Origin: Vicinamibacterales bacterium
GTDB taxonomy: Bacteria; Acidobacteriota; Vicinamibacteria; Vicinamibacterales; 2-12-FULL-66-21
Assembly (NCBI GenBank): GCA_035495555.1
Contig: DATJFQ010000024.1
Coordinates: forward strand, 5,705 to 69,704
DNA: 64,000 nucleotides
Direction of reading: 5' to 3'
Shown here: one piece after another, positions 13,443 through 63,451 of the stretch
How the letters are laid out: each line of letters begins with the position of its first letter
How positions within the stretch are numbered: position 1 is the stretch's first letter
Position numbers and translations under genes: made by a program
Notes under the pieces: model-generated
The model's input: the letters and a program-made list of their open reading frames with translations, nothing else
What the model was told of the DNA's origin: nothing
The model's database searches: none

Positions 13443-14096
13443 ATGCACTCCGTAGAGACGATTGAGCCGTTGCTGCGGGAGCGACTCGCTGGCACGCTGC
13501 CCGGCGTCGAGGTACAGCTTCGGTTCGCCTCCGGCTTGCCGCGCAAGGGTTGGAAACCCGGCGTCTATCCAAGTGATGCCAGGGTTGCCGCCGCGCTCCT
13601 GCTTCTCTACCCCGGTCCCGAGGGACTGACGATCCCGCTCACGGTCCGCGCGAGTCACTTACGCCGCCACGCGGGTCAGATCAGCCTGCCTGGGGGGGCC
13701 GCAGAAGCTGGCGAGTCACTCGAGGCGGCTGCGCTGCGCGAAGCGCACGAAGAAATCGGTGTGCCGTCGGAGTCTGTTCGCATTCTGGGATCCCTCACGC
13801 CGGTATACGTGCTCGTCAGCGGCTTCACGCTCAACCCGATCGTGGGCATCACCGACACGCGACCTGACTTTCGCGCAGCCGCGCACGAAGTCGATCAAAT
13901 CCTGGAAGTGTCGCTCGACGACGTGCAGGACGCTTCGCGGATTCGAACGGGCACGCGCATCCGCGAGGGGGTCGCCGTCGAATATCCGTACTTCGATCTG
14001 CACGGCCATCAAGTGTGGGGCGCGACGGCGATGATTCTGGGAGAGTTCATCTCGCTGCTGCAGTCGCGGGGCGGACACAGTGAGATCGCAGATTGA
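13443..14096 (+). CDS. Nudix hydrolase, CoA pyrophosphatase-like
   Basis: Nudix box LPGGAAEAGESLEAAALREAHEEIGV, preceded by LTVRASHLRRHAGQIS as in NudL/PCD1-type CoA pyrophosphatases. Confidence 0.8.
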   Translation: MHSVETIEPLLRERLAGTLPGVEVQLRFASGLPRKGWKPGVYPSDARVAAALLLLYPGPEGLTIPLTVRASHLRRHAGQISLPGGAAEAGESLEAAALREAHEEIGVPSESVRILGSLTPVYVLVSGFTLNPIVGITDTRPDFRAAAHEVDQILEVSLDDVQDASRIRTGTRIREGVAVEYPYFDLHGHQVWGATAMILGEFISLLQSRGGHSEIAD

Positions 14097-14132
14097 TGAT
14101 TGCAGATTGATGATTGCAGATTGCTGATTGCA
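14084..14132. repeat. Heptanucleotide tandem array (GATCGCA GATTGAT GATTGCA GATTGAT GATTGCA GATTGCT GATTGCA)
   Basis: Seven contiguous 7-nt units read directly. The array overlaps the Nudix stop codon (14094-14096) and ends 9 nt before the convergent methyltransferase stop (14142). Confidence 0.95.
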
Positions 14133-14141
14133 CCCGGCGGG

Positions 14142-14573
14142 TCACACCATATAGGGCACGACGCGGCGCGTGCGGCGCATGTAATCGCGATACGCCGGGT
14201 ATCGCACGACGAGCATGCGCTCCTCCAGCAACATCCTGGCGATGGCGCCGACGGTAATCAACGCGCCGCCGGCAATGCTGAACCACGAGAGGTGGTCGAT
14301 GACCGCAGCCCACGTGAAGTAGAGGACGGCCGCATAGATCGGATGCCGCAGAACGGCATACGGCCCCGACGTGACGAGGCCGCCTTCCGTCGGGTTCGCC
14401 GCCGCATGAAAGCTGCGTCGTCCGAAGGTGATGCGCGCGTACAGCATCAGGAGGACGGCTGCGACCTGCACCGCGATTGCGACGGGTTCAGTCGCGAAGA
14501 TAAACCCGCGGTAGATCAGCACAGCCAGGCCGGCGATCATGAGCGCGAAGGCAACGACGGAGCTCACACGCAT
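14142..14573 (-). CDS. Isoprenylcysteine carboxyl methyltransferase (ICMT)-family membrane methyltransferase
   Basis: Start moved to ATG 14573 (MRVSSVVAFALMIAGLAV...). C-terminal signature LVTSGPYAVLRHPIYAAVLYF...EERMLVVRYPAYRDY. Confidence 0.7.
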   Translation of the reverse strand: MRVSSVVAFALMIAGLAVLIYRGFIFATEPVAIAVQVAAVLLMLYARITFGRRSFHAAANPTEGGLVTSGPYAVLRHPIYAAVLYFTWAAVIDHLSWFSIAGGALITVGAIARMLLEERMLVVRYPAYRDYMRRTRRVVPYMV

Positions 14574-14622
14574 GTGCTGCACCTGAACGAACGTCCGCCA
14601 TTGTATCCGGGTGCAGAGTTCG

Positions 14623-17277
14623 TCAGCTCCGCAACGTGCTGACCGGGTCGACCCGAATCGCGCGACGGGTCGGCAGATAGCAGGCCGCTGCGGCCGCGAC
14701 CGCCAGCGCGGCCGCAACCGCGCCAAAGGTGAGGGGATCGACAGGGCTCACGTTGAAGAGCAACGCCCGCATCAGCCGCGTGAGGGCGAACGCCGCCATC
14801 AGCCCGGCTACGAATCCCGCGCACACCGGCCGGAACCCTTCGCGCATTACCATACTGATGATCGACGCCCCCCCGGCGCCGAGCGCCAGCCGCAATCCAA
14901 TCTCCGAGCGACGGCGGCTGACAGAGAACGCCAACGTGCCATAGATCCCGATCGCGGCGAGGACGAGCGAGGTCAGCGCAAACCCGGCAAGTAACAGCGC
15001 GCGGAATTTCGGCGCCGCGACCGCACGCGCCGCCAGTTCCTCGAGCGGCCGGACACGACTGATCGCAATGTTGCGGTCCATCGTGGCGAGCACCTGCCGC
15101 ACGATGGAAACGGTCGCGACGGGATCCCCCGCTGTCCGTACCACCATCGTCATCTCGTCGGATGCGTATTGATCCTGCGGCACGTACACGACCGGTGGAG
15201 GGGCGTCGTCGATCGCTCCGACGTGCACGTCGCCGATTATCCCGACGATTTCGCGCGGTTGAGTCTCGCGCACCCCGAGATTGACACCGATGCGCAAAGA
15301 GCGGCCGATCGGATTCTCACCCGGCCAGTACTTTCGCGCCGCCGTTTCACTGATCAGGGCGACGCCGGCCCCGCCGCGGACGTCGGACCACGCGAACGCG
15401 CGTCCTGCGTGGAGTGGAATGCGCATCGTGTCCAGATAGCCGGGGGTGATGCAGCGCACCTGCATCGATCCCTCCGCCGCGGGACCCGTGCGGTCGGGGA
15501 AAGTTACGGTGCCTCCGAAGCCCGTGGGCGTGAGCGGCGGGAGCAGGACGGCACCGGCCGCGATGACCCCCGGCTGTCCCTGGAGACGCTGCGTGTACTC
15601 GCGGAAGAATGCGGCGTCGCTGTTGAACGTGGGATACGTGCCGCCTGGCAGCTGCACGTTGAACGTCAGCACGTGAGCGGCGTCGAATCCGGGCTGCACC
15701 CGGGTCAACTGATCGAAGCTCCGCAACGCCAGTCCTGCGCCCGCCAGCAGAACGACCGCCAGGGCGACCTGGACGGCGACCATCAGCTGCCGAAGCCCTC
15801 GACGGCTCGTGGTGACGTCCGTGCCCCGGCGTCCGTCCTTCAAGTACTTGCCGAGATCCGTGCGCGAGGCGATGAGCGCGGGAACGACGCCGAAGAGAAG
15901 ACCGGTCGTCAACGACAGGACCAGCGCGAACACCAGGACAAGCGGGTTGAGGCCGAGCCCGTCGACGCGCGGCAGGTCGGCCGGTGCAATCGAGAGCAGG
16001 ACGCGGAGCGCCCAGGATCCGACCAGGAGCCCGGCGATGCCGCCGCCGAACGCGAGCACGAGACTCTCGACACAGAGTTGGCGAAAAATCTGCGCGCGCG
16101 CCGCGCCGAGCGCCGAGCGCAGGGCCATCTCACTGATCCGCGTGGTCGCGCGCGCGAGGAGGAGGTTCGACACGTTCACGCACACGATCAGGAGCAGGCA
16201 CAGGACCGCGGCGAAGAGGACGAGCAGCGGCTGCTTGACGTCGGCGACGAGCTTGTCGAGGAGCGGCGTGACCGCGACGGCATATTCCGCCACCTGACGA
16301 GGATAGAGACGGGCCAGATCCGCTTCGATTGCGGCGATGTCCGCCTGCGCAGCCTGTTGTGATACGCCGTCCCGGAGACGCCCGACCACCGACAGATAAT
16401 GTGCGCCGCGCTGCCGCGGGGACAGCAACTCCGGCGTCAGCACCAGCGGAAGCCAGATCTCCGCGTGCTCGGGAAAGTCGAACCCCGGCGGCATGATGCC
16501 GACGATTTCGTGCGGCTTGCCGTCAACGGTCACCATGCGGCCGACAGCGGACGGATCGCCGCCAAACCGCCGCTGCCACAGCCGGTACGAGATCGCCGCC
16601 ACCGCCGCCGAATGTTCGCGCATGTCGCCGGCGTTCAGCGTCCGGCCGGACGCCGCTGGTACGCCCAGGGCGGCGAATACATCTGCGTCCGCATACACCG
16701 TGTCGACGCGCTCGGGCGTGTCGCCTGCGAGCGTGACGGTCGACGGGTTGTAAGCACCGAGGGACAGGAATGAATGATTGCGCGCACGCCAGTCCTGAAG
16801 ATTGACCGCGGAGACGGCAAACGGTCTGCCGTTGTGGACCTCGTTCACGTCCATCACGCGGCCGGCGTCTGGATAGGGCAACGGGCGAAGCAGCACTTGC
16901 TGGACGACGGTGAACATCGCAGCGCTCGCGCCGATCCCGAGCGCCAGGGTCAGCAGCACGCTCACCGTGAAACCGGGCGATTTCCGCAGCAGGCGGAGCG
17001 CAAACCTCAGATCGTGCAGGAACATGGGATCAACTCCCCTTCGCGCTGACGATTGGACGAGGAACGCCGGACGGTCGATGCGCCGGCATTCGCTCGCCAG
17101 CGCCACGACGCGGACTGCGAACCAGATCTCGATGGCGACCCGGGCCGGGACCGTCGCGCGACGGCAGCGGGCGCGGCGCACGCGCGAGAGATCTGCAACC
17201 GCAGGCTCGAAGCACCGGCGCCTGGCCGCGTCCGGCACGAATCGCGCGGCGAGCGACACGACATCAGGCATGCGCAT
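14623..17277 (-). CDS. ADOP-family duplicated permease with N-terminal extension (ADOP3)
   Basis: Track ORF (to 17421) trimmed to ATG 17277 (or 17271), because upstream codons overlap PadR2. 88 aa precede the conserved DLRFALRLLRKSPGF...GIGASAAMFT. An alternative canonical start is Met at 17025 (MFLHDLRF). Ends TRRAIRVDPVSTLRS. Confidence 0.85.
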   Translation of the reverse strand: MRMPDVVSLAARFVPDAARRRCFEPAVADLSRVRRARCRRATVPARVAIEIWFAVRVVALASECRRIDRPAFLVQSSARRGVDPMFLHDLRFALRLLRKSPGFTVSVLLTLALGIGASAAMFTVVQQVLLRPLPYPDAGRVMDVNEVHNGRPFAVSAVNLQDWRARNHSFLSLGAYNPSTVTLAGDTPERVDTVYADADVFAALGVPAASGRTLNAGDMREHSAAVAAISYRLWQRRFGGDPSAVGRMVTVDGKPHEIVGIMPPGFDFPEHAEIWLPLVLTPELLSPRQRGAHYLSVVGRLRDGVSQQAAQADIAAIEADLARLYPRQVAEYAVAVTPLLDKLVADVKQPLLVLFAAVLCLLLIVCVNVSNLLLARATTRISEMALRSALGAARAQIFRQLCVESLVLAFGGGIAGLLVGSWALRVLLSIAPADLPRVDGLGLNPLVLVFALVLSLTTGLLFGVVPALIASRTDLGKYLKDGRRGTDVTTSRRGLRQLMVAVQVALAVVLLAGAGLALRSFDQLTRVQPGFDAAHVLTFNVQLPGGTYPTFNSDAAFFREYTQRLQGQPGVIAAGAVLLPPLTPTGFGGTVTFPDRTGPAAEGSMQVRCITPGYLDTMRIPLHAGRAFAWSDVRGGAGVALISETAARKYWPGENPIGRSLRIGVNLGVRETQPREIVGIIGDVHVGAIDDAPPPVVYVPQDQYASDEMTMVVRTAGDPVATVSIVRQVLATMDRNIAISRVRPLEELAARAVAAPKFRALLLAGFALTSLVLAAIGIYGTLAFSVSRRRSEIGLRLALGAGGASIISMVMREGFRPVCAGFVAGLMAAFALTRLMRALLFNVSPVDPLTFGAVAAALAVAAAAACYLPTRRAIRVDPVSTLRS

Positions 17278-17599
17278 CGCGGGTGCGGGTGTCGAATTCA
17301 GCGATGGCTTCGGTGTAGAACGCCCGGGTCGACGTCCAGGCCTGCGCGCCCGCGTCGGTGAGCGTGTAGCGGCGTTCCTTGATGATTTGGCCGTCGACGA
17401 TCTTCTGGTCGTAGGCGCCATCCACGAGTCCGGCGTCCTCGAGCCGCGCCATCATCTGATAGAACGCCGGGGCGGAGCGTGCGACCCCTCGCTTCGCGAG
17501 CGCGCGGCGCAGGTAGCGTCCCGGCCGCTCCCCCGCGCGCAGTAATCCCAGCACCAGGAACTGCAGGTGCGTAATCGCTGGAATTCGGCGGCGTGACAT
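17264..17599 (-). CDS. PadR-family transcriptional regulator (PadR2)
   Basis: 111 aa. Sequence THLQFLVLGLLRAGERPGRYL...FYQMMARLEDAGLVDG...RRYTLTDAG has the PadR winged-HTH layout. Its stop overlaps the ADOP3 start by 8-14 nt. Confidence 0.8.
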   Translation of the reverse strand: MSRRRIPAITHLQFLVLGLLRAGERPGRYLRRALAKRGVARSAPAFYQMMARLEDAGLVDGAYDQKIVDGQIIKERRYTLTDAGAQAWTSTRAFYTEAIAEFDTRTRDAHA

Positions 17600-20714: not shown

Positions 20715-20721
20715 AGGCCTG

Positions 20722-20741: not shown

Positions 20742-20787
20742 TATGTGTCAAGTGCCTTCCGGCCCGTCTCGTCGTAGACTTTTCCGC

Positions 20788-31973: not shown

Positions 31974-32530
31974 GGCGCGCGCACCTCGCGCCTCGCGCCT
32001 CCCGTCTCACGCCGCGCGCCGATCCGCCTTGTCTTGCGATGGGTCCCCGCTCGGACAACTCCGCCTCCGCGCAGGCAGAGACTCCGCCTGCGCTCCGGCG
32101 GGATCTCGCCGAAGCCGCTTCGCGGCGGAGGCGGACCCGCTTCGTGGTCGGCGGCGGGAAAGACTTCGACGAGGAGCCGCCTCCGCGCGACGCGCGCGCC
32201 CGTCCTCGCCCCCATCGCTGGTGAGGCGATCGGGCTCGCGCGCCTCTCGCCTCCCGCCTCGCGCCGCGCGCCTCGCACCGCGCGCCTCCCGCCTGACGCC
32301 GCGCGCCGATCCGCCTTGTCTTGCGATGGGGCCCCCGCTCGGACAGCCCGCTTCGTGCTCGGCGGCCGGAAAGATTGTCGACGAGGAGCCGCCTCCGCGC
32401 GAAGCGGGCGCCCGTCCTCGCGCCCATCGCTGGTGAGGCGATCGGGCCCGCGCGTCTCTCTCGCCCCACCTCCCGCCTCGCGCCTCGCACCTCGCACCTC
32501 GCGCCTCGCGCCTCGCGCCTCGCGCCTCGC
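31974..32530. repeat. Composite repeat region: heptamer arrays (GCGCCTC-type; 31974-32022, 32240-32302, 32466-32530) alternating with two copies of a hairpin-forming element (32009-32239 and 32296-32465; period 287 bp)
   Basis: Read directly. ACGCCGCGCGCCGATCCGCCTTGTCTTGCGATGGG...CCCATCGCTGGTGAGGCGATCGGG occurs twice. Copy 1 carries an extra ~80-nt internal hairpin. The last array abuts the TonB-dependent receptor stop (32531). Confidence 0.9.
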
Positions 32531-38153: not shown

Positions 38154-38209
38154 CTTCGTGCCTGGTGCTCGGTGCGGGGCGCTCGGTGCGGGGTGCTTGG
38201 TGCTCGGTG
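38154..38209. repeat. Heptanucleotide tandem array (CTTCGTG CCTGGTG CTCGGTG CGGGGCG CTCGGTG CGGGGTG CTTGGTG CTCGGTG)
   Basis: Eight contiguous 7-nt units with a 14-nt higher-order period. Ends 5 nt from the stop of the hypothetical gene (38215). Lies 77 nt upstream of the HTH gene start (38077). Confidence 0.9.
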
Positions 38210-38214
38210 CGGCT

Positions 38215-39582: not shown

Positions 39583-39641
39583 GCAGTTGTGTAGTTGGTA
39601 GTTGGTAGTTGGTAGTTGCGTAGTTGCGTAGCTCGCAGTTG
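39583..39641. repeat. Heptanucleotide tandem array (GTAGTTG-type: GCAGTTG TGTAGTTG GTAGTTG x3 CGTAGTTG ...)
   Basis: Read directly. Lies between convergent stops (methyltransferase 39559-39561, ogt 39657-39659). Confidence 0.9.
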
Positions 39642-39656
39642 CGGCGCGCCCCCGCG

Positions 39657-48558: not shown

Positions 48559-48663
48559 CGACTGGAAACTGGCGACTGGCAACTGGCGACTGGTAACTGA
48601 AGACTGGTAACTGGAAACTGGCAACTGGCAACTGGCAACTGAAGACTGGTAACTGGCGACTAT
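48559..48663. repeat. Heptanucleotide tandem array, 15 units of NNACTGG (minus-strand CCAGTTG-type) with a 42-nt higher-order period
   Basis: Units verified one by one: CGACTGG AAACTGG CGACTGG CAACTGG CGACTGG TAACTGA AGACTGG TAACTGG AAACTGG CAACTGG CAACTGG CAACTGA AGACTGG TAACTGG CGACTAT. Lies 1 nt from the HTH gene stop (48665) and 67 nt upstream of the A2M start. Confidence 0.95.
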
Positions 48664-49471: not shown

Positions 49472-50482
49472 ATGTCGTCCCGCTGCCTCAGTTTCCACGC
49501 CGGCTATCGATGCCGGCATTCCGGCGTCTGCTGTCGGGCCGGATGGGACATCCCGTTCGAAGGGCAGGAGCGTGAAGCCGTGGAGCGTCTCCATCTCGTC
49601 CCACTCGGCGCGTTCAGAGATGGCGCCGACGTGTCGTTCGCGGCGCGCCGCGCCGACGGGGCCTGCGTCTTCCTCGAAGCCGGGAATGAACGGGTGCTCT
49701 GTGGAATTCATCGCGCCGCGGGTCAGCAGACGCTGCCGGCCGCCTGCCGGATGTTCCCGCGGGTCGCGCTTCGGGACTCGCGCGGATGGACGGTCACGCT
49801 GTCGCACTTCTGCCCGACGGCCGCATCGCTCCTCTTCGAGGACGACGAGGACGTGCAGATTGTCGACGCGCCGGCTTCACTCATCGATGTGGGACCGCTG
49901 GAAGGTCTCGATGCCGCCGACGCCATTCCCCCGCTGCTGCGCGACGGCGTGCTCATGGATCTGGAGAGCTTTTCGGAGTGGGAGTCGCACGCCATTAGGG
50001 TCCTGACTGCACGCGGCTGCACACCCGAAGCGTCGGTCTCGCGGCTGGAAGAGCTGACTGACGAGCTCGCGGGCTGGTCGCCTGGCGAGGGGGAGCTGAT
50101 CGATCGCGTTCGGACGGTTTTCATGAGCGAGCGCCCACCATGCGGTGGGGGCCTCCAGGCCTGTTCTGCTGATGCCGCCGCGGCCGGGTCGCGCGCGGCT
50201 CAGCGATGGCTCGCCGGGCATCTGTTCGGCAACTGGATCGCGTATCAAGGGCGCGGCCTGCGCACGATCGTGCGATACGTGCGCGCGTGCCTCGACGTCT
50301 TTCGCATCGAACTCGCCCGCGATGGCGACGCGCTGGAGGCGATCCGGCGCAGCGACTATCTCATCGTGCATGAATCGGATTCGCAGCAGCTCGCGGCGTC
50401 GATCGATGGACTCGCGAGGCGCGAGGCGCGAGGCGCGAGGCGCGAGGCGGGAGGCGGGAGGCGGGAGGCGGGATTTGACTAA
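49472..50482 (+). CDS. Cysteine-cluster protein, YkgJ/FliB (flagellin lysine-N-methylase)-like family
   Basis: N-terminal FHAGYRCRHSGVCCRAGWDIPFE plus ACVFLE...LCGIHR and FCPT resemble the CxxCxxCC-type zinc/iron-chelating domain. The last ~23 residues (ARREARGARREAGGGRREAGFD) are encoded by a heptamer array. Confidence 0.5.
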   Translation: MSSRCLSFHAGYRCRHSGVCCRAGWDIPFEGQEREAVERLHLVPLGAFRDGADVSFAARRADGACVFLEAGNERVLCGIHRAAGQQTLPAACRMFPRVALRDSRGWTVTLSHFCPTAASLLFEDDEDVQIVDAPASLIDVGPLEGLDAADAIPPLLRDGVLMDLESFSEWESHAIRVLTARGCTPEASVSRLEELTDELAGWSPGEGELIDRVRTVFMSERPPCGGGLQACSADAAAAGSRAAQRWLAGHLFGNWIAYQGRGLRTIVRYVRACLDVFRIELARDGDALEAIRRSDYLIVHESDSQQLAASIDGLARREARGARREAGGGRREAGFD

Positions 50483-50516
50483 TTGGTAATTGCGTAGTTG
50501 GGTAGTTGGGTAGTTG
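50413..50516. repeat. Two adjacent heptanucleotide arrays: CGCGAGG x5 + CGGGAGG x3 + CGGGATT (50413-50475), and TAATTGG TAATTGC GTAGTTG GGTAGTTG GGTAGTTG (50480-50516)
   Basis: Units verified one by one. The first array forms the 3' end of the upstream CDS, whose stop (50480-50482) opens the second array. pepT starts at 50541. Confidence 0.95.
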
Positions 50517-50540: not shown

Positions 50541-51767
50541 ATGAACGTCCTTGATCGATTTCTTCATTACGTCACCATCGATACGCGGGCGGACGACAGC
50601 TCGCAGACCTGCCCGACCACACCGGGACAACTCGAGTTGATGCACGTGCTCGACGCCGATCTGCGCGCGGTTGGACTTACCGACGTCTCGATCGACGAGA
50701 ACGGATATCTGATGGCGACCATCCCGTCATCGGTGACGCAGCCGGTGCCGACGATCGGCTTCATTGCGCACGTCGATACGTCGCCCGAGATGCCTGGCAA
50801 CGGCGTCGAACCGATCGTTCATCGTGCGTGGGACGGCTCCGACATCGTGCTGCCCGACGACCGGACGGCTGTGCTGCGGGTCGCCGACAACCCCGATCTA
50901 GCCGCGCAGGTCGGCAACGACATCGTCACTGCCTCGGGCACGACGCTCCTTGGCGCGGACGACAAGGCCGGCGTGGCGGCTATCGTGGCCGCGGCGGAAT
51001 ACCTGATGAAGCATCCGGAAGTGCCGCACGGCACGATCCGGATTGGATTCACGCCGGACGAGGAGATCGGGCGCGGCGCGAACCGCTTCGATGTGGAGCG
51101 ATTCGGCGCGACGTACGCGTACACGCTCGACGGCGGGTCGGCGGGAGAGCTGGAGTACGAGAGCTTTTCAGCCGACGTCGTCCGTGTCACGTTCGTCGGC
51201 TTCAATACGCATCCCGGGTTTGCGACCGGCAGGATGATCAATTCGATCAAAGCCGCTGCGCGATTCATCGATAGTCTGCCCGCCGGTGTGCTCTCGCCCG
51301 AGACGACGTCAGGATATGAAGGGTTCGTGCACCCCTATCATCTCGACGCGGCCGTCGATCGAACGACCGTTCGAGTGCTGCTGAGGGACTTCGTCACCGC
51401 GACGCTGTCTGACAAAGCCGAACTCATCGAGCGGGCTGCGCGCGATGCGGCGAGGGCGTTCGGTGCCACGGTGGAGATCGAGCGGCAGGAACAGTATCGC
51501 AACATGCGCGAGGTGCTCGATCACCATCTGGAAGTCGTCGACCGCGCCCGCAGCGCGATCATGCGGCTCGGACTGACGCCGATCGAGCGGCCGATCCGCG
51601 GAGGGACGGACGGCTCACGGCTGTCGTTCATGGGGCTGCCGACGCCCAACCTGTTTGCAGGCGAGCACAACTTCCACTCACGGCTGGAGTGGACGTCGCG
51701 TCAGGAACTCGAGCTCGCTGCGCGCGCAATCGTGGAAATCGCGCGAGAGTCAAACATGAATCCCTAA
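50541..51767 (+). CDS. pepT: Peptidase T (tripeptide aminopeptidase, M20B)
   Basis: Start moved to ATG 50541 (MNVLDRFLHYVTIDTRADDSS...). Contains HVDTSPE, GADDKAG, FTPDEEIG and full-length PepT-like order. Confidence 0.9.
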   Translation: MNVLDRFLHYVTIDTRADDSSQTCPTTPGQLELMHVLDADLRAVGLTDVSIDENGYLMATIPSSVTQPVPTIGFIAHVDTSPEMPGNGVEPIVHRAWDGSDIVLPDDRTAVLRVADNPDLAAQVGNDIVTASGTTLLGADDKAGVAAIVAAAEYLMKHPEVPHGTIRIGFTPDEEIGRGANRFDVERFGATYAYTLDGGSAGELEYESFSADVVRVTFVGFNTHPGFATGRMINSIKAAARFIDSLPAGVLSPETTSGYEGFVHPYHLDAAVDRTTVRVLLRDFVTATLSDKAELIERAARDAARAFGATVEIERQEQYRNMREVLDHHLEVVDRARSAIMRLGLTPIERPIRGGTDGSRLSFMGLPTPNLFAGEHNFHSRLEWTSRQELELAARAIVEIARESNMNP

Positions 51768-51924
51768 TCCCTAATCGCCAATCGTCGAATCCCTGATCCG
51801 TGAATCCTGAATCCCGAATCCCCGAATCCCCGAATCGTGATTGCTTAGCCGATATCCAGATGAGTAAGTAACTCAGCGCGCCGCACGCCGCATGCCGCAC
51901 GCCGCACGACGCGTGCCGCACGCC
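51758..51924. repeat. Two heptanucleotide arrays between convergent genes: GAATCCC-type (51758-51845, ~12 units) and GCACGCC-type (51876-51924, 7 units)
   Basis: Read directly. The first array begins inside the last codons of pepT (stop 51765-51767). The second ends at the base before the VWA gene stop (51925-51927). Confidence 0.95.
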
Positions 51925-53724
51925 TCACCTGACACGAAACGGCACAAGTGCTTGCGCGTGGGCGCTGCCGGACGCCGCGCGGAACTCGACGAGATATTCA
52001 CCCCTCGCCAGGGACGCGATGGGCAACGACGTCTCGTACTGACCGTCAGGGCGGCGCGTCAGCGGGAGATCGGCCAGGGCGACGGCTCCCTTGTTGAGGA
52101 GACGCGCCGTCGGCGCGGACGATGGCGCCAGGGTTCCGGCGAGGCCGACACGAATCACGACCCGGTCGGACCGCTCGAAGTCGTGGCCGGCGAACGGCAC
52201 CGCGGCGTCGTTCGATTCGATGTCGCGCAACTCGATTCCCGTGCGTGCACGAAAGACACGCGGCGACGCAAAGGCGATCGGCACGCGGCCGTAGTCTGGC
52301 ACCGTGACCGAGGTGGTCCGCGCGCCGAGCGAAGCGCCGCCGGTATCGGTCAGCGTCTGGCGGATATCGACCTCGCCGGGCGAGACGTCGAAGGTCGCGC
52401 TCCCGTTCACCGTGCGATCGAAAAAGAGACGACCGTCGGGTGACACGGCGCGGACCCGGATGCTGACGTCCGTCCGTGCCGATGACGGCAGCCACGCCAC
52501 CGTCATCGTGGGGTGACCTCCACCGGGTTGGGTGCCGACCCAGAGATCGCCGTCGGCCTCCTCGGGGCTCACGACGAGGGTGGAGAGCGCATGCGTGACC
52601 TCCGGCGGCACTTCTGCTGTGCTCGCCGATGCGCGTGCCGACGCGATCGCTGCCAGCGTCGGTGCGAAATAGCCGCGTCGAGCGTGGACCTCGAGGCCGG
52701 GCCGGCTCACATGCACATCGATCTTATGGAACTTGCCGTCGGCGGGATTCCTGGACGAGCTGTACCCAAGCAGGTAAAAGGCGCTGTTCTCGGTCACCAT
52801 CTGCAGGAGGCGCTTTGCCGGCGCGTTGCTGCGCACGCTTTCCGCACCCGTGTCCGCGGACACCGACATCAGGACGCCGCTCATCAGCCCGAGGCTGCGG
52901 GGATCGAAGGTATAGACGGCCGTGTTGTTCTGATTGGCCTGCCGGATGAAATCCCGCAGCCAGTCCGCCTGGTCCGCCGGTCCGCCCATGGGACCAAAAT
53001 CCTCGGTCACGAGGAGCACGGCCTTGCGCCCTTCCTTGATCGTGCCGAGAAAGCCCACCGTCGCCTCGAGCGCGGACCGCGACACCTGTGAGCGCAGTCC
53101 CTCGACGTTCCCCGCCCGATAGAGCTGCGCTTCCTCCATTGCGCTGCGCGGCGGCAGGTATACGCCTCGCCGTCCTTTGAGCTTCGCCACCGTTTCGGCC
53201 AGCGCCCTGCGATCGCGCGTGAACTCGATCGCGTCCGACGGCGTGAGCTGATCGGTGATGGCCACGAGGTCCGTCGGCCCGAACGCGTTGAGCACGAGAT
53301 CGGTCAACGCTGCACGACCGCGGATGGCGGGCTCGAACTGGTCGATGTGGTACTCGTCCCAGAAGACGACGAACACGCGGACGTCGTCGCGCGCGGCTTC
53401 CGCGTAAGCGTGCTCGCGCGAACGGATCGGCAGCGACAGGTCGTCGGTCGGTTGCCCGTCAGTCTCGAGAAACCGGAACGCTTCGATCGTTTGCGGTATG
53501 CCGTCTTCGCTGACCGCGAAGTCGTCGCGTGTGAGATCCGTGAGCGGCTTGCCGTGTTTGTCGAGGACCGTGACGTCGACGCGGACCAGGTTTGTCGCCG
53601 CGCGAAACGTCGGCTGCTGCTGAGCCGCCGGCGGCGGCGCCTGTGCGCCGAGCAGCGCCGACGCAATCAACGCCGCAGCGCCGGCCGCCAACACCGCGCG
53701 GGGAAACCACATGGGAAGTTCCAT
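51925..53724 (-). CDS. VWA-domain protein with VWFA-related acidobacterial N-terminal domain
   Basis: Signal peptide, then PTFRAATNLVRVDVTVLDKHGKPLTDLTRDDFAVSEDGIPQTIEAFRF, which is characteristic of the TIGR03436-type family (from memory), followed by a VWA-like fold. The start is at 53724 or Met 53712. Confidence 0.8.
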   Translation of the reverse strand: MELPMWFPRAVLAAGAAALIASALLGAQAPPPAAQQQPTFRAATNLVRVDVTVLDKHGKPLTDLTRDDFAVSEDGIPQTIEAFRFLETDGQPTDDLSLPIRSREHAYAEAARDDVRVFVVFWDEYHIDQFEPAIRGRAALTDLVLNAFGPTDLVAITDQLTPSDAIEFTRDRRALAETVAKLKGRRGVYLPPRSAMEEAQLYRAGNVEGLRSQVSRSALEATVGFLGTIKEGRKAVLLVTEDFGPMGGPADQADWLRDFIRQANQNNTAVYTFDPRSLGLMSGVLMSVSADTGAESVRSNAPAKRLLQMVTENSAFYLLGYSSSRNPADGKFHKIDVHVSRPGLEVHARRGYFAPTLAAIASARASASTAEVPPEVTHALSTLVVSPEEADGDLWVGTQPGGGHPTMTVAWLPSSARTDVSIRVRAVSPDGRLFFDRTVNGSATFDVSPGEVDIRQTLTDTGGASLGARTTSVTVPDYGRVPIAFASPRVFRARTGIELRDIESNDAAVPFAGHDFERSDRVVIRVGLAGTLAPSSAPTARLLNKGAVALADLPLTRRPDGQYETSLPIASLARGEYLVEFRAASGSAHAQALVPFRVR

Positions 53725-53749: not shown

Positions 53750-53961
53750 GCGTTGAATCCCCAATCCCTAATCGCCGATCCTCGGATCCCTGATCCTCAA
53801 ATGCCTGATCCTCGAATCCCTGACCCCGAATCCCCGAACCCCTGATCGCGAATCCGCGCATCCCGAATCGCGGATCCGGCGATGCTGGATGCGGGATTCG
53901 GGATGCGGGATGTGGGATCGGGGATTCGGGGATCGGCGATAAGGGATAAGGGATTCAACGC
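53750..53961. repeat. 212-nt inverted heptamer-array hairpin (C-rich GAATCCC-type arm and complementary G-rich GGGATTC-type arm) closed by a perfect 12-bp clamp
   Basis: GCGTTGAATCCC (53750-53761) and GGGATTCAACGC (53950-53961) are exact reverse complements. The interior units are largely complementary. The right clamp overlaps the xthA stop (53955-53957). Confidence 0.9.
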
Positions 53962-57765: not shown

Positions 57766-57770
57766 ACATA

Positions 57771-57812
57771 CTCCTGTTGAAAAACAAAAGGAGCGTAGCG
57801 GATCTCCTGTTG
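57771..57812. promoter_or_regulatory. CTCCTGTTG boxes in the PadR4/ADOP7 divergent region: CTCCTGTTG-AAAAA-CAAAAGGAG imperfect palindrome plus a second direct CTCCTGTTG copy
   Basis: CTCCTGTTG at 57771-57779 and 57804-57812. Near-complement CAAAAGGAG at 57785-57793. Low-GC patch immediately upstream of PadR4. Confidence 0.4.
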
Positions 57813-57901
57813 GATGTCAAAAGGAATCGCCCGACGGAGGCGGCAGGATATGATCGAACGTCTGCTCGTTCCGTGACGTATCTGTACTGATCGAGGTTCG
57901 A

Positions 57902-60370
57902 ATGGAACGATTCGTCCAGGATTTGAGGTTTGCGGTCCGCGTCCTCCTGAAAGAACGCGGCTTCACGGCCACCGCCCTTCTCACCCTCGCCATCTGCATC
58001 GGCGCCAACGCCGCCATTTTTGCCATCGTCAACGCCGTCCTGCTCGAACCGCTGCCGGTGCCTCATCCTGAGCAGCTCGTTTACATGTACAACTCGTATC
58101 CGGGCGCTGGTGTCGGCGATCGCGGGTCGACCGGCGTCCCGGATTACTACGACCGCCTGCGCGAAACGTCCGTGTTCCAGGAGCAGGCGCTCTACAACAC
58201 CACCGGTGTGACGCTCGGACAGGAGGGCAACCCGCAGCGGGTGACCGCGATGGCCGCGACGCCGTCGATGCTGCGCCTGCTGCAGGTGCAGCCAATCCGC
58301 GGGCGCAGTTTCACCGATCAGGAGGGCGAACTCGGCAACACGAAGAAGGTGATCCTCACGTACGGCACGTGGCAGCAGTCGTTCGGCGGACGCGACGACG
58401 CAATCGGACAGTCATTGCGAGTCAGCGGAGAGCCGTACACGATCGTCGGGGTCCTCCCTCGAGACTTCTCGTTCCTCGACCCCGACATCAGGTTCTGGAT
58501 GCCCCTGGCGTTCACGGCCGAGCAGAAATCGGACGAGGCCCGGCACAGCAACAACTGGTCGTACCTGGGGCGCCTGAAAGCGGGCGCCACCATCGAGCAG
58601 GCACGCCAGCAGATCGACGCGCTCAACGCGCGTAACCTCGATCGCTTCCCGCAGTTGAAACAGATCCTCATCAACGCCGGCTTTCACACCGTCGTCGTCC
58701 CGCTGCAGGCGTATCTCGTGCGGCAGCTTCGCGGCACGTTGTATCTGCTCTGGGGCGGCGTGGCGTTCGTGCTCCTGATCGGCGTCGTCAACATCGCCAA
58801 CCTGACGCTCGTTCGATCCACGGCTCGCATGAAGGAGCTCGCGACGCGCCATGCGCTCGGCGCCGGGCTCGGCCGGCTGGCGCGACAGCTCTTCACCGAA
58901 ACGGTACTGCTGACGCTCGTTGGCGGCGGGGCCGGGCTGCTGCTCGGGTTCGCGGGCGTCCGGGCGCTCGCGCGTTACGGGCTGGCGGAGACCCCGCAGG
59001 GCACCACTGTGGCAATCGACGCACGCGTCATGCTGTTCACTTTCCTGCTCGCGCTGCTCGTCGGCGTCGCGATCGGCCTTGTGCCGGTCTTCGGAGTACG
59101 ACAGACGAACCTGAGTCAGGCATTCCGGGAGGAAGGGCGCAGCGGCACGGCTTCGCGGGGCGCGCGCGTCATGCGCCGCGTGCTCGTGACCGTGCAGGTC
59201 GCCTTTGCTTTCATGCTCCTCATCGGTGCCGGTCTGCTGCTGGCGAGCTTCCGGCAGATTCTCGCGGTCAACCCGGGGTTCCATCCCGATCACGTCTTGA
59301 CGGCTCGCGTGAGCCCACCCGCCACGCGCTACAAGGACGACCCGGCGCTCCGGGCGTTTGCCGATCGGCTGCTCGAGCGTGTCCGCGCGCTGCCCGGTGT
59401 CGAAGCGGCCGCCATCACGAGCAATCTGCCGCTGGGGGACGATCACAGCGACAGCGTGATCCTCGCCGAGGGCTACACCATGAAGCCGGGGGAGTCGCTG
59501 ATTTCGCCATTCCGAACGCGGGTCACGCCGGGATACTTCGCGGCCATGGGTATTCCGGTGAAGGTTGGACGTCCGTTTACCGCCTCCGATACGGACAAAT
59601 CACCGCGCGTCATCATCATCGATGAAAAACTCGCCGCGAAGTTTTTCGGTACGGAAGATCCCGTCGGTCGGCGAATGTGGCAGCCAGACAAACCGGAGGA
59701 ACTGTCCAAAGGGCCGGGACCGAAATCGGACTTCTACACCATCGTCGGGGTCGTCGGCAGTGTCCGCATGCTGGGACTCACCGAGAAGGGGGACGTCGGC
59801 GCGTACTATTTCCCGAACTCTCAGAATACGATGCGCGGGATGACGCTCGTCGTCCGCAGTTCCGTTGAGCCAGATTCGCTCGCCTCATCGATCCGGCGCC
59901 AGGTCTCGTCGCTCGATCCCGAACTGCCGTTGTTCGCCGTTCAATCCATGACGGCGCGGATCGACGAGTCGCTGCTGAACCGCCGCACGCCCATGCTGCT
60001 CGCTGTGCTGTTCGCCGCCATTGCGCTGTTCCTGGCGTCAGTCGGGATTTACGGTGTGCTCGCGTATCAGGTATCGCAGCGCCGCCGCGAGATTGGCATC
60101 CGGCTCGCGCTCGGCAGCGATGGCACGCGAATCTTCCGCCTGGTCGTTCGTGAAGGGCTGGTGCTGCTGGGCGCTGGCGTCGCCGGGGGGCTGGTCGGTG
60201 CGTTCGTCATCCGGCGCGCAGTCGAGTCGCAGTTGTACGGCATCACGGCGCTGGATCCGCGCGTGCTGGTGTCCGTCGCCGTCGTACTCGGGGTCGTCGC
60301 GTTCGTCGCGTGTGCCGTACCGGCACGCCGGGCGGCGCGCATCGATCCGGTCATCGCCCTGACCGAATGA
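57902..60370 (+). CDS. ADOP-family duplicated permease (ADOP7, no prefix, divergent from PadR4)
   Basis: 822 aa. Starts MERFVQDLRFAVRVLLKERGFT...IGANAAIFA. Duplicated FtsX halves. Ends ARRAARIDPVIALTE. Confidence 0.9.
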   Translation: MERFVQDLRFAVRVLLKERGFTATALLTLAICIGANAAIFAIVNAVLLEPLPVPHPEQLVYMYNSYPGAGVGDRGSTGVPDYYDRLRETSVFQEQALYNTTGVTLGQEGNPQRVTAMAATPSMLRLLQVQPIRGRSFTDQEGELGNTKKVILTYGTWQQSFGGRDDAIGQSLRVSGEPYTIVGVLPRDFSFLDPDIRFWMPLAFTAEQKSDEARHSNNWSYLGRLKAGATIEQARQQIDALNARNLDRFPQLKQILINAGFHTVVVPLQAYLVRQLRGTLYLLWGGVAFVLLIGVVNIANLTLVRSTARMKELATRHALGAGLGRLARQLFTETVLLTLVGGGAGLLLGFAGVRALARYGLAETPQGTTVAIDARVMLFTFLLALLVGVAIGLVPVFGVRQTNLSQAFREEGRSGTASRGARVMRRVLVTVQVAFAFMLLIGAGLLLASFRQILAVNPGFHPDHVLTARVSPPATRYKDDPALRAFADRLLERVRALPGVEAAAITSNLPLGDDHSDSVILAEGYTMKPGESLISPFRTRVTPGYFAAMGIPVKVGRPFTASDTDKSPRVIIIDEKLAAKFFGTEDPVGRRMWQPDKPEELSKGPGPKSDFYTIVGVVGSVRMLGLTEKGDVGAYYFPNSQNTMRGMTLVVRSSVEPDSLASSIRRQVSSLDPELPLFAVQSMTARIDESLLNRRTPMLLAVLFAAIALFLASVGIYGVLAYQVSQRRREIGIRLALGSDGTRIFRLVVREGLVLLGAGVAGGLVGAFVIRRAVESQLYGITALDPRVLVSVAVVLGVVAFVACAVPARRAARIDPVIALTE

Positions 60371-60374
60371 CGGC

Positions 60375-60405
60375 AAACAACCGCGTACAGCCCGCGTTGT
60401 TGTTT
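60375..60405 (+). terminator. Candidate intrinsic terminator after ADOP7
   Basis: AAACAACCGCG-tacagcc-CGCGTTGTTGTTT, followed by AATAAA, starting 5 nt after the stop. The stem is imperfect (one bulge) and was folded by eye only. Confidence 0.4.
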
Positions 60406-60416
60406 AATAAAGGCTG

Positions 60417-61115
60417 GTGCTCAGGACGGTTTTCCTCGATGCGGGCGGTGTACTTCTCTACCCCAACTGGTGGCGCGTGGCCGAGGCGCTCGCGCGGGAA
60501 CAAGTCGCGGTTGCACCCGAGGCTCTCGCCGCAGCGGATCCTTATGCGCGGCGCGAACTGGACGACCGCCGCACGATCGGCACGACGACCGACGCCAGCC
60601 GGGGGTGGCTGTTCTTCGATTTGATCCTCGAGCACGCCGGCATCTCCCGGTCCGAGGCGACGGCGGCGGCGCTCGCCGAGCTGCATGCGTACCATACGGC
60701 GAGCAATCTGTGGGAATACGTGCCGAACGACGTGGTGCCGGCGCTCGAAGCGCTCCGCGCGCGCGGGCTTCAGCTCGTTGTCGTGTCCAACGCGAACGGC
60801 ACGCTCCGCGCGCACATGGATCGGCTGAAGCTCACGCCGCTGTTCGACACCATTCTCGACTCGTCGGACGAGGGCGTGGAGAAACCTGACCCGCGCTTCT
60901 TCCGGATCGCGCTCGAGCGCAGCGGTGCGTCACGCGAGTCGACGATCCATGTCGGCGACCTGTATTACGTCGACGTGGTGGGGGCGCGAAACGCCGGTCT
61001 GCGCGGCGTATTGCTCGATGAAGCGAACCTGCGGCCGGACGCGGATTGCCCGCGCGTGCGAAGTCTGGATGATCTCGTGCGGCGGATCTCCGATGGAGAG
61101 TTCGATGCGGACTGA
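60417..61115 (+). CDS. HAD-superfamily hydrolase (subfamily IA-like)
   Basis: GTG start. Motif I variant VFLDAGGVLL, then VVSNANG and HVGDLYYVDVVGARNAG. Substrate not inferable. Confidence 0.7.
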   Translation: MLRTVFLDAGGVLLYPNWWRVAEALAREQVAVAPEALAAADPYARRELDDRRTIGTTTDASRGWLFFDLILEHAGISRSEATAAALAELHAYHTASNLWEYVPNDVVPALEALRARGLQLVVVSNANGTLRAHMDRLKLTPLFDTILDSSDEGVEKPDPRFFRIALERSGASRESTIHVGDLYYVDVVGARNAGLRGVLLDEANLRPDADCPRVRSLDDLVRRISDGEFDAD

Positions 61116-61136
61116 CGTCAGACGCCAAGACCTCCG

Positions 61137-62834
61137 CTACGGTGTCTGCCCCGCCCGCTCGATCTTTGCCCACGAATCCTTCAAGGTCACGGTGCGGTTG
61201 AACACCGGGTGCTCGGGGGTGGAGTCGAGGTCCACGCAGAAATATCCGAGCCGCTCGAACTGAAAGCGGGTGCCGTGCGGCGCTGCCGCTGCTGACGGTT
61301 CTACCTTCGCGTCGCGAATCACCTCGAGCGAGTTCGGGTTGAGATCCGCGCGGTAATCGCCGTCGGCCCCGGGCTGCTCCGTGTTGAACAGCCTGTCGTA
61401 CAGTCTCACTTCCGCCTCGACGGCGTGCGCCGCCGAGACCCAGTGCAGCGTCGCCTTGACCTTCCGTCCATCGGGTGCGTCACCGCCCCGAGTGGCCGGA
61501 TCGCAGCGGCAGTACAACTCGATGACCTCCCCCGTTCGTTCGTCCTTGATCACGCGCGTACACGTGATGAAGTACGCGCAGCGGAGCCGCACCTCCCGTC
61601 CGGGCGCGAGACGGAAGAACTTCTTCGGCGGATCCTCGCGAAAGTCGTCGCGATCGATATAAAGGACGCGCGAGAACCGCACCTTTCGCGTGCCGGCTGA
61701 GGGGTCTTCCGGGTTGTTGACGACGTCGAGTTCTTCGCTTTGCGCTTCCGGATAATTCTCGATGACGACGCGAAGCGGACGAAGGACGGCCATCACCCGC
61801 GGCGCATGCCGGTTCAAGTCCTCGCGCACTGCGTGCTCCAGCAGCGCGACGTCGATCACGTTCTCACGCTTGGCGACGCCGATGCGGTCGCAGAAGGCGC
61901 GGATCGCTTCCGCGGTGTACCCGCGACGCCGCATGCCGACGATCGTCGGCATCCGAGGATCGTCCCAGCCGCTGACAAGGTTGTCTTCGACCAGCTCGAG
62001 CAGCCGCCGCTTGCTCATGACGGTGTAGGTGAGGTTCAACCGCGCGAACTCGATCTGCCGCGGGCGCGACGGCACCGGCAGGTGGTCGATCACCCAGTCG
62101 TACAGCGGCCGGTGGTCTTCGTACTCGAGCGTGCAGAGCGAGTGCGTGACCTGCTCGAGCGCGTCCGACGGAGGATGCGCGAAATCGTACATGGGATAGA
62201 TGCACCATGCATCGCCGGTCCGGTGGTGATGCGCGTGGCGGATGCGATACAGCACCGGGTCGCGCATGTTGATGTTCGGCGACGCCATGTCGATCTTTGC
62301 GCGCAGGACGTGCGCACCGTCCTCGAACTCCCCCGAGCGCATCCGCGCGAACAGATCGAGGTTCTCGTCGACGCTGCGGCGTCGATGCGGGCTCTCGACG
62401 CCTGGCGACGTCAGCGTCCCGCGATTGACGCGTATCTCGTCGGCGGACTGGCTGTCCACGTACGCCAGACCGCTGCGGATGAGATGGACCGCATACGCGT
62501 AGAGCTGTTCGAAGTAGTCCGACGCGAAATGGATCTGCTTCCACTCGAATCCGAGCCAGCGGACGTCGTCTTCGATGGCGTCGACATACTCGACGTCCTC
62601 CTTCGTCGGATTGGTATCGTCGAACCGCAGATTGCAGGTCCCGCCAAATTCCCGTGCGACGCCGAAATCGAGGCAGATGGCTTTGGCGTGACCGATGTGC
62701 AGATACCCGTTCGGCTCCGGCGGAAAGCGGGTGACCACGCGCCCGTCGTTCCGCCCGGCGGCGACGTCCTCGGCGACGATGGCTCGGATGAAGTCGACGG
62801 CCTCGCGATCGGTTCCTGTCGGCGTTGAATCCAT
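61137..62834 (-). CDS. glnS: Glutamine--tRNA ligase
   Basis: Class I HIGH motif ([13 protein letters not shown]), [10 protein letters not shown] (KMSKS-type), full-length GlnRS order including the C-terminal anticodon-binding beta-barrels. Confidence 0.93.
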
Positions 62835-62836
62835 GG

Positions 62837-63412
62837 CTAGGCCCTTCCCGCGAACTCGCGCGTCTCGGTGTGCACCTTCACCTTCTCCCCTTCTTTGATG
62901 AAGAGCGGAACGCGGATCTCGAGGCCTGTTTCGAGCGTCGCGGATTTCGTGACGCCGCCGCTCGCCGTATCGCCGCGGACGCCCGGCTCCGTCGACGCGA
63001 CGGTCAGCTCCACGTGCGGCGGCAACTGCATGCCGATCGGGTTCCCGTTGAACTTCTGGATCTGCACCGGCACGTTGTCAACCAGCAGCAGCCGGTCGTC
63101 GCCGAGGACATCACCGCGGATGGTCAACGTCTCGAACGTCTCCTGGTCCATGAAGTGGTGGCCGTCGCCGTCGCTGTAGAGGAACGTCGCCGCGACGACC
63201 GTCAAATCGGGCTCTTTGAACTTGTCGGACGCTTTGAAGGTCTTGTCGAATACTGCGCGGGTGAGCAGGTTCCGCATCTTCAGGCGGACGAGCGTCTGGC
63301 CCCCTCGGGCGGTCGGCTTCGAAATCTCGACGTCCAGGCAGTGGTACGGCGCCCCTTCGTATTCGAAATACATCTTGCGCTTGACGGACATCGCTTCGAT
63401 CAGAGAGGCCAT
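62837..63412 (-). CDS. Elongation factor P family protein with EfpL/YeiP-like loop (KPTARGG)
   Basis: 191 aa with three EF-P domains. The tip of the beta3-beta4 loop reads [18 protein letters not shown] (compare E. coli YeiP/EfpL SPTARGAATLYKMR and canonical EF-P KPGKGQAF, sequences recalled from memory). Ends ...EFAGRA. Its stop lies 2 nt before the glnS start. Confidence 0.8.
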
Positions 63413-63423
63413 CGCTCTATTGT

Positions 63424-63451
63424 AGCGAGGCGGGAGGCGCGAGGTGCGGGG
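63424..63451. repeat. Short heptanucleotide array (AGCGAGG CGGGAGG CGCGAGG TGCGGGG)
   Basis: Four units read directly. Ends at the base before the OMP gene stop (63452) and lies 12 nt upstream of the EF-P-like start (63412). Confidence 0.8.

Follow-up and report, generated by a model that had tools for sequence, protein, structure and literature searches.

The window analyzed here is a 64,000-nucleotide (nt) stretch of contig DATJFQ010000024.1 (positions 5,705 to 69,704 of the forward strand; assembly GCA_035495555.1, a Vicinamibacterales bacterium of the Acidobacteriota). It has a G+C content of 66% and, by Pfam scan, carries ordinary housekeeping and envelope genes, such as those for a TonB-dependent receptor, a melibiase, an alpha-2-macroglobulin, a PBP1-type transglycosylase, EF-P, GltX, and IMP dehydrogenase. 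Between these genes lie tandem arrays of 7-nt units whose sequence changes from array to array. The sequence-only reading, an earlier inspection of the letters without database searches, had listed 13 of them, and Tandem Repeats Finder (TRF) recovers all 13 (Table 1); as that reading had also noted, some arrays are complements of others, for example the GAATCCC and GGGATTC arms at 53750-53961.

The GTDB species genomes with relatives of the M20 peptidase encoded in the window mostly bear the label Vicinamibacterales or Acidobacteriota, and a few have other labels; the best of these relatives has 73% amino acid (aa) identity. For this protein we use the start ATG 50541, which gave exact matches; a version with a TTG start gave none. 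Proteins identical to those of the window are found on contigs of several soil-type metagenomes (exact protein match). We compared the window with 80 related Vicinamibacterales/Acidobacteriota loci (1.42 Mb, from about 80 genomes) and with L085, an independent assembly from Joint Genome Institute (JGI) sample 3300061539 that covers positions 42729-63709.

Table 1. Heptamer arrays and permease genes of the window. TRF, call by Tandem Repeats Finder; length differences are those of the named contigs relative to the window; ORF, open reading frame.
Feature	Position	Strand	TRF call	Units and structure	Flanking genes	Length difference
GATTGCA/GATTGAT array	14084..14132		14084-14132	7 units, 14-nt superunit	convergent junction; holds NUDIX gene stop TGA 14094-14096; ends 9 nt before PEMT-like stop (14142, minus)	
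CCTCGCG-type array	31974..32022		31980-32020		first of three in TonB-receptor/melibiase spacer; 86 nt upstream of melibiase start (31887)	
CCTCGCG-type array	32237..32307		32237-32307	~10 units; within 212-287 nt higher-order duplication		
CCTCGCG array	32466..32530		32469-32530	~9 units, 94% match	0 nt from TonB-dependent receptor stop 32531-32533 (minus)	
GGTGCTC/GGTGCGG array	38154..38211		38164-38211	~7 units, 14-nt superunit	3 nt from stop of ORF 38215-38625 (minus); 77 nt upstream of start of HTH-like gene 37358-38077 (minus)	
GTAGTTG array	39583..39643		39585-39643	some 8-nt units (GCGTAGTT)	convergent junction: PCMT stop 39559-39561 / MGMT stop 39657	
NNACTGG array	48559..48663		48559-48661	15 units; 14- and 42-nt superperiods; unstructured as RNA	1 nt from HTH_25 gene stop (48665, minus); 66 nt upstream of alpha-2-macroglobulin start (48492)	+14 nt in L085
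CGCGAGG x5 then CGGGAGG x4	50413..50475	+	50413-50470		within 3' end of ORF 49472-50482	
TAATTGG/GGTAGTTG array	50480..50516		50485-50516 (period 8)	7-8 nt units	begins at stop 50480; ends 24 nt before M20 peptidase start (50541)	
GAATCCC-type array	51757..51845		51757-51836	7-8 nt units	holds M20 peptidase stop TAA 51765-51767	+13 nt in L088
GCACGCC array	51876..51928		51879-51928	7 units, 21-nt superunit	overlaps 599-aa gene stop (51925, minus)	-14 nt in L087
GAATCCC-type array	53750..53870		53755-53956 (both orientations)	left arm of inverted pair		
GGGATTC-type array	53872..53961		53755-53956 (both orientations)	right arm of inverted pair	overlaps Exo_endo_phos stop 53955-53957 (minus)	+15 nt in L085
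CGNGAGG x4	63424..63452		63425-63452 (weak: 4 copies, score 35)	weak array	most of 39-nt spacer from outer-membrane protein stop (63452) to EF-P start (63412)	identical in four other assemblies
MacB_PCD/FtsX permease ORFs	1968-4403, 6885-9467, 14623-17421, 17695-20367, 20662-23280, 54773-57418, 57902-60370					

The period is far more constant than the unit. A strict self-match scan of the window finds six arrays of period 7, seven of period 14, two of period 8, one of period 3 (a 17-nt match), and none at the other periods between 1 and 15, while 30 third-order Markov shuffles of the window give approximately 0.03 strict arrays per period. In the window no tandem period is over-represented other than 7, together with its multiples 14, 21, and 42 and occasional 8-nt units. 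The 80 related loci show this spike as well: the strict scan yields 70 period-7 arrays, 51 of period 14, and 26 of period 21, with between 4 and 19 for every other period. TRF arrays of at least four copies, counted over the window and the 80 loci together, number 114 at period 7, 18 each at periods 8 and 9, 3 at period 6, and 5 at period 10. Roughly 45 canonical heptamers are represented among the approximately 70 strict arrays of the relatives, and about half of the relatives' units contain GGG or CCC; the claim that a period of 7 is kept irrespective of unit sequence is borne out beyond the window.

Period-7 arrays occur across the Vicinamibacterales lineage, but their distribution among its genomes is patchy. 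Of 60 loci exceeding 15 kb in length, 21 are free of arrays and others carry as many as seven per 21 kb; the counts per locus are over-dispersed (mean 2.0, variance 5.6) and correlate negatively with G+C content. Short-read contigs also begin or end in heptamer arrays, as do L087 (position 1, within an ACTGGCA array) and L027 (positions 2-47). Because contigs break there, the arrays will be under-counted in fragmented metagenome-assembled genomes (MAGs).

The arrays are found at the 3' ends of genes, as the sequence-only reading had proposed, and the stops it quoted end real ORFs. On our refined gene map, three of the nine array-bearing junctions of the window are convergent (14084, 39583, 51758/51876) and six are tandem (31974-32530, 38154, 48559, 50413-50516, 53750-53961, 63424). 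At each of the six tandem junctions, the edge of the array on the stop side overlaps the upstream stop or lies 0-6 nt from it, and the distance to the next start is 11-86 nt. Several stop codons are themselves part of array units (TGA 14094, TAA 51765, TGA 53955-53957 on the minus strand, and the stop at 51925), and every array of the window is either intergenic or overlaps the last codons only of a gene. Tightly coupled junctions have no arrays, as had been remarked, but trivially so, since they offer no room for one.

This positioning extends to the relatives. Over the window and the 80 loci, convergent junctions carry 1.51 arrays per kb of intergenic DNA, tandem junctions 0.55, and divergent junctions 0.35; gene calls for these statistics are crude (GC3-based, from G+C at third codon positions), and the divergent-junction counts and start-codon distances are approximate. 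An array is present in 29 of 129 convergent junctions (22%) but in only 19 of 187 divergent ones (10%; Fisher p = 0.004), a divergent count that is itself inflated by missed small genes. Arrays in convergent junctions lie a median of 2 nt from the nearest stop. In tandem junctions this median is 15 nt, 22 of 45 arrays lie within 10 nt of a stop, and the next start is a median of 46-88 nt away, a value that varies with the way starts are called. The closeness to stops is partly a consequence of arrays filling short intergenic spacers.

One array of the window is translated. The repeat at 50413-50475 encodes a C-terminal tail that extends a CxxCxxCC-domain protein (49472-50482) approximately 22 residues past the end of roughly 40 orthologs. 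Among samples this array has 6, 9, or 13 units, and a 28-nt difference shifts the frame (L086, L087). Stops in all three frames follow it (50476, 50480, 50487), so that translation ends promptly at any copy number. In four relatives (L016, L017, L033, L034), the M20 reading frame likewise runs on through an array. We considered whether the hypervariable tracts could form a phase-variation contingency locus, another suggestion of the sequence-only reading, and rejected it: the tracts follow stops and are not in promoters or 5' coding regions, and the sole coding tract alters only an unconserved C-terminal tail.

Array length varies between near-identical strains by gain or loss of one to four whole units. 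Over positions 42729-63709 the window and L085 are 99.69% identical, with 14 mismatches, and every insertion or deletion (indel) between them falls inside an array and is unit-sized, except for a single 1-nt gap at 50493, in the array with 8-nt units. Besides the gains listed in Table 1, of which that in the GGGATTC arm is composed of one insertion of 7 nt and one of 8 nt, L085 has 21 nt less in the CGCGAGG array. Eight contigs from different samples encode an identical M20 protein, and their aligned spacers differ almost only by indels of 8, 13, 14, 21, and 28 nt, although not all eight reach across every array. L093, for instance, lacks 8 nt (one unit) of the 50480-50516 array. Base changes are few: L088 has one substitution within the GCACGCC array, L091 has a few directly 3' of the CGCGAGG array, and the longest CGCGAGG allele, with 13 units, includes new unit variants. 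A comparison of L017 with L023 was unusable for this purpose, as scattered 1-nt indels resemble sequencing or assembly noise. Unit-step indels between near-identical strains are the signature of slipped-strand mispairing. Gain and loss of units, which had been put forward as a check on the arrays, is thus observed, and the statement that they are unlike slippage microsatellites is reversed: they behave as heptameric long simple sequence repeats (SSRs).

The arrays differ among themselves in predicted structure. Those in a single orientation fold no better than shuffled sequences (z approximately 0 to +1.2 for most, up to +2.2), and none of 200 shuffles folds as poorly as the segment 48530-48664, which includes the 15-unit ACTGG array. 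A nearby inverted partner exists for about a third of arrays, and such a pair can be predicted to form an extensive hairpin; for the segment 53725-53965 the predicted fold is a stem-loop of roughly 100 bp with a stop codon within its base (-136.6 kcal/mol, z = -8.3). Where arrays are present, strong predicted folding (z < -3) is found at 13 of 24 convergent junctions and at 14 of 27 tandem ones, compared to 9 of 60 tandem junctions that are array-free. A hairpin explanation for all arrays is rejected by the single-orientation arrays. The array hairpins have no T tail and are not intrinsic terminators, and although 20 terminator-like matches (a hairpin followed by a T run) occur in 44001-64000, none of them is at a gene end. 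By analogy with repetitive extragenic palindromic (REP) sequences, inverted array pairs, at about half of the array-bearing 3' junctions, may insulate transcripts or protect their 3' ends. The sense strand is G-rich in 33 arrays and C-rich in 25, and this lack of strand bias relative to the transcript argues against a role in loading Rho, for which a C-rich, unstructured sense strand would be expected; we rejected that role.

Orthologous junctions show how dispensable the arrays are. Downstream of the M20, HTH_25, and Exo_endo_phos genes, about 23-26% of species each have an array, which is similar to the general rate for convergent junctions; species without one often have a gap shorter than 40 nt or overlapping genes there. 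Many relatives do without an array at these three junctions, so the arrays are not essential there, and we rejected the idea that particular junctions require them.

At the Exo_endo_phos junction of relatives, a hairpin made of arrays is situated between the stop codon and a conserved TTGACA...TACTAAATACTTAGTA motif. Its arms are GGCTCAG/CCTGAGC in L017, L022, L023, L026, and L071, CAGGGAT/ATCCCTG in L070, and AATGCTG/CATTCAG in L047 and L073. A variant unit in one arm has its match in the other, and the loops diverge to the point that those of same-type hairpins are unrelated. The AATGCTG/CATTCAG hairpin is also found 3' of the HTH gene in L022, L046, and L070. Some species have ordinary REP-like hairpins, or nothing, in place of the array hairpin. 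Small G+C-rich hairpins of this kind, with CTTCAG/CTGAAG or TTTAG loops, are present at the Exo_endo_phos 3' junction in L043, L044, and L063 (CCAGGCTTTAGCCTGG), and others (CCGGCTTCAGCCGG or CCGCCTGAAGGCGG) in L020, L071, L028, and L030; the one in L071 is inside the loop of the array hairpin.

The motif downstream of these hairpins, CTTGACA followed by a spacer and the palindrome TACTAAATACTTAGTA, is found just 5' of the next gene in L012, L016, L022, L023, L026, L028, L030, L033, L071, and L079. Its sequence resembles that of a sigma-70-type promoter plus an operator for that gene. It is absent at the Exo_endo_phos junction of the window, where the gene for a 599-aa protein follows (51925-53724, minus). 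This gene has no Pfam match and has homologs in only 8 of the 80 related loci. A GAATCCC-type array borders it on each side (51757-51845 and 53750-53870), and its slot between the M20 and Exo_endo_phos genes, both of which are conserved, is a variable one.

We consider it likely that the period-7 arrays result from polymerase slippage in steps of 7 nt, and that they are tolerated in 3' spacers and maintain themselves there. Slippage would create and keep arrays where extra DNA is tolerated, which would be after stop codons rather than in constrained coding, promoter, or 5' untranslated DNA. If extra DNA is tolerated only past stops, array edges should coincide with stop codons. Since 7 is not divisible by 3, an incoming reading frame would end within 21 nt in any array whose unit includes a stop triplet, and units without one could be absorbed into unconstrained C-terminal tails. 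Following the proposal made in the literature, the 7-nt period itself could be a property of the replicative polymerase, which would contact approximately 7 nt. A secondary and less certain element of this scheme is that inverted array pairs would form a long stem-loop between the stop and the next promoter, the arms of which would evolve in concert.

Several observations weigh against slippage in its plainest form. Indel steps are often of two to four units, and unit similarity within arrays does not decay with distance (mean differences of 1.13, 1.02, and 1.13 at lags 1-3). The frequent larger steps fit with this absence of decay and with the 14-, 21-, and 42-nt superperiods detected by TRF, and the steps of 14-21 nt together with the 14-nt superperiods suggest multi-unit events rather than the simplest single-unit slippage. 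Nor are units drawn entirely at random: in the window CGCGAGG recurs at three junctions and GAATCCC and GTAGTTG at two each, units are identical in 6.8% of within-genome array pairs as opposed to 1.3% between genomes, and the GGCTCAG unit is conserved among species whose DNA identity is only 75-84%. Pure random slippage also leaves the inverted array pairs and their co-varying arms unexplained. The recurring units and the appearance of the same hairpin at different junctions leave some room for ectopic conversion, mobility, or a sequence preference. A further reservation is that repeats can be misassembled in metagenome assemblies; however, all arrays except the 53750-53961 pair are shorter than an assumed short read of approximately 150 nt, and their alleles recur in independent assemblies.

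In a rival explanation, all of the arrays could be 3'-end elements (terminators, insulators, or mRNA stabilizers) selected for that role in a genome with few hairpin-plus-U-tract terminators, a role that the sequence-only reading had suggested. Their location directly after stops, and before the next start in tandem junctions or before the TTGACA...TACTAAATACTTAGTA motif in relatives, would suit such elements, as would their depletion at divergent junctions, the strong folding of half of the array-bearing junctions, hairpin arms that are conserved or co-varying around divergent loops, and the lack of a canonical terminator at any gene end in 44-64 kb. We nevertheless regard this explanation as rather unlikely, given the unstructured single-orientation arrays, the balance between strands, the free variation in copy number between near-identical strains, the third of lineages that have no arrays (21 of 60 long loci), and the approximately 75% of species that are array-free at the three orthologous junctions, often with almost no spacer. 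What stands of the earlier suggestion is a plausible 3'-end structure for the inverted pairs, at about half of the array-bearing junctions; it does not extend to the single-orientation arrays or to the many junctions without an array. Those same unstructured arrays, with their strict period, free sequence, and frequent 14-nt superperiod, might instead recommend a platform for a protein that reads nucleic acid in a 7-nt register, such as an RNA-binding regulator, Rho, or a nucleoid protein. We know of no sequence-independent 7-nt reader, copy number appears unconstrained, the C-rich sense-strand bias that Rho loading would need is missing, and many lineages and junctions are without arrays, which makes this idea extremely improbable. 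A dedicated, sequence-independent mechanism could alternatively set the 7-nt step in Vicinamibacterales, cyanobacteria, and Xanthomonas alike, with inverted pairs acting as evolvable terminators or insulators that lack a U tract, placed at the stop codon and continually rebuilt as stem-loops from arrays; we think this unlikely.

Two further proposals concern the units themselves and their spread. G-quadruplex (G4) or i-motif formation on DNA or RNA, which has been proposed for the GGGNATC repeats of Xanthomonas and Nostoc and was raised for the window as well, would be compatible with the units of the form G3N4 or C3N4 (CGGGAGG, GAATCCC/GGGATTC, CGGGGYG), with the GGG or CCC runs in half of the relatives' units, and with the formation of G4 by GGGNATC-type oligonucleotides in vitro (PMC4692102). 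Yet arrays with at least four G3 or C3 runs number only 4 of 14 in the window and 42 of 135 when arrays are pooled, a single short window array exceeds a G4Hunter-type score of 1.2, and units such as GATTGCA, GTAGTTG, ACTGGCA, AATGCTG, and AAAGTTA are unable to form G4. By rough calculation, a random heptamer at 66% G+C already has a 35-40% chance of a GGG or CCC run. G4 or i-motif potential therefore holds for about a third of the arrays and is rejected as a general property, and as the explanation of the arrays we judge it very improbable. Mobility is suggested by the AATGCTG/CATTCAG hairpin at different junctions in different genomes, by unit recurrence within a genome, and by the 3' extragenic niche that array hairpins share with ordinary REP-like hairpins in relatives. 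In such a scenario inverted pairs would be elements similar to REPINs (REP doublets forming hairpins) or to MITEs (miniature transposable elements with inverted repeats), spread by a dedicated transposase, and single arrays would be decayed halves. A Pfam scan of the approximately 40 ORFs of the window found neither a transposase nor a gene of the Y1 or REP-associated tyrosine transposase (RAYT) type; there is no conserved non-repeat core and no target-site duplication, the loops of same-type hairpins are unrelated, and unit diversity is far above that of a REP family. Moreover, the 7-nt periodicity and unit-step indels require slippage in any case, so that mobile elements seem quite improbable as the explanation.

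In cyanobacteria, heptanucleotide arrays have been on record since 1990, and across bacteria since 2007. The closest match to those described here is the class of heptanucleotide long SSRs: the arrays of the window iterate a 7-nt unit beyond chance, period 7 dominates in the window and the 80 loci, length is polymorphic by whole units, and constrained coding DNA is avoided. In the Mrazek 2007 survey, as it is cited in PMC4679880 and PMC4692102, heptanucleotides are the most abundant class of long SSRs (units of 5-11 nt) in many genomes, especially large ones of non-pathogens, and the approximately 7 nt contacted by DNA polymerase are proposed to favor slippage. To the extent of these citations, the resemblance includes head-to-tail 7-nt units, a dominant period of 7, large high-G+C genomes of non-pathogens, and a mostly non-coding location, as well as lengths that vary by slippage and an interpretation as a general propensity for expansion instead of a specific physiological role (PMC4679880, PMC4692102). 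Compared to the class as cited there, the lineage of the window has high within-genome unit diversity and a large share of inverted pairs.

Also close to the arrays of the window are the GGGAATC arrays of Xanthomonas and the GGGGA(C/T)T arrays of Nostoc (Rehm et al. 2015), approximately 90% of which are intergenic and for which no function was found (PMC4692102). They are on average 28 nt from the upstream ORF, the downstream ORF being much farther away, are seldom found between divergent genes, and often occur as inverted pairs able to form stem-loops, with no strand preference; junctions are kept in related species while length and sequence vary (PMC4692102). The arrays described here share the proximity to the upstream ORF end, an approximately fourfold greater density in convergent than in divergent junctions, and the inverted pairs. 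Xanthomonas and Nostoc, however, each have one dominant G-rich unit per genome with four units preferred, the minimum for G4 (PMC4692102), whereas the lineage of the window has many unrelated units, most of them incapable of forming G4 by the count of G-tracts given above, in arrays of up to 15 or more units. Even the GGGATTC of the window differs from the GGGAATC of Xanthomonas.

The short tandemly repeated repetitive (STRR) sequences of heterocystous cyanobacteria comprise a few defined unit families, namely CCCCAGT, TTGGTCA, and CAACAGT. They are 7-bp repeats that form hairpins between genes, with proposed roles in transcript stability (PMC2670836), and heptanucleotide repeats of Calothrix are among those cited in PMC4692102. 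The tandem 7-bp units, intergenic location, and frequent hairpins are common to STRRs and the window, but the window belongs to another phylum and its units are different and far more diverse; the NNACTGG array (complement CCAGTNN) only resembles CCCCAGT. In Beggiatoaceae, TAACTGA heptamers are repeated in tandem mostly just upstream of start codons (PMC4679880), and Geobacter metallireducens has four-copy heptanucleotide elements that also occur inside genes (PMC2700814). These, too, are heptamer tandem repeats abundant in the intergenic DNA of particular lineages (PMC4679880, PMC2700814), but with a single fixed unit in 2-6 copies, as opposed to diverse units at 3' ends.

The sequence-only reading was also correct that the arrays are neither CRISPR (short palindromic repeats, clustered and regularly interspaced) nor, in all probability, classical REP sequences or bacterial interspersed mosaic elements (BIMEs), as their units of 7-8 nt are contiguous and of many types. 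CRISPR repeats are 24-48 nt long and alternate with unique spacers of similar length, and we rejected this assignment since the arrays have no spacers. REPs are single imperfect palindromes of 20-40 nt with a conserved core and are tied to RAYT transposases. The arrays share with REPs, BIMEs, and REPINs the 3' extragenic niche, often between convergent genes, along with stem-loops and species-specific sequence; they differ in being tandem 7-nt units of many types with unit-step variation, and no RAYT-type gene is present in the window.

Apart from the arrays, the window contains a striking local expansion of seven paralogous MacB_PCD/FtsX permeases with a duplicated architecture (810-930 aa) within 64 kb (Table 1). 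A gene for a PadR-family regulator precedes at least two of them, one at 6350-6883 and a second that was called in L085 and matches approximately 57415-57765. The 643-nt spacer from the TonB-receptor stop to the melibiase start contains a higher-order tandem duplication at 31978-32530, with a spacing of approximately 212-287 nt, each copy of which consists of a CCTCGCG array and unique sequence. In it, CCGCCTTGTCTTGCGATGGG and CATCGCTGGTGAGGCGATCGGGC each occur twice, and neither is found elsewhere in the window; a 25-nt inverted repeat is present at 32125-32186 of the same spacer. No Rfam family was found in the whole window at the gathering threshold. ARAGORN predicted a 97-nt tRNA-Arg(CCT) at 33009-33105 (minus), within the TonB-dependent receptor gene (32531-35584); as Rfam does not support it, this is probably a false positive.

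Taken as slippage products, the arrays of the window are comparable to cyanobacterial STRRs and to the Xanthomonas GGGAATC repeats, that is, they are heptanucleotide long SSRs, and apparently the first for Vicinamibacterales; among the papers searched there was no report of such repeats for Acidobacteria, Vicinamibacter, or Vicinamibacterales. They add an abundant soil lineage, dominated by uncultured members, to the carriers of heptamer arrays, one with a constant period and an almost free unit sequence. In practical terms, heptamer arrays break short-read contigs, extend or truncate the 3' ends of ORFs, and will mislead gene callers and terminator predictors when these are applied to Acidobacteriota MAGs. 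The lineage also offers a clean comparative data set, with natural unit-step variants, in which period-specific slippage can be set against selection for 3' hairpins. If a dedicated 7-nt mechanism did exist, the high unit diversity of this lineage would make it the best system in which to separate period from sequence.

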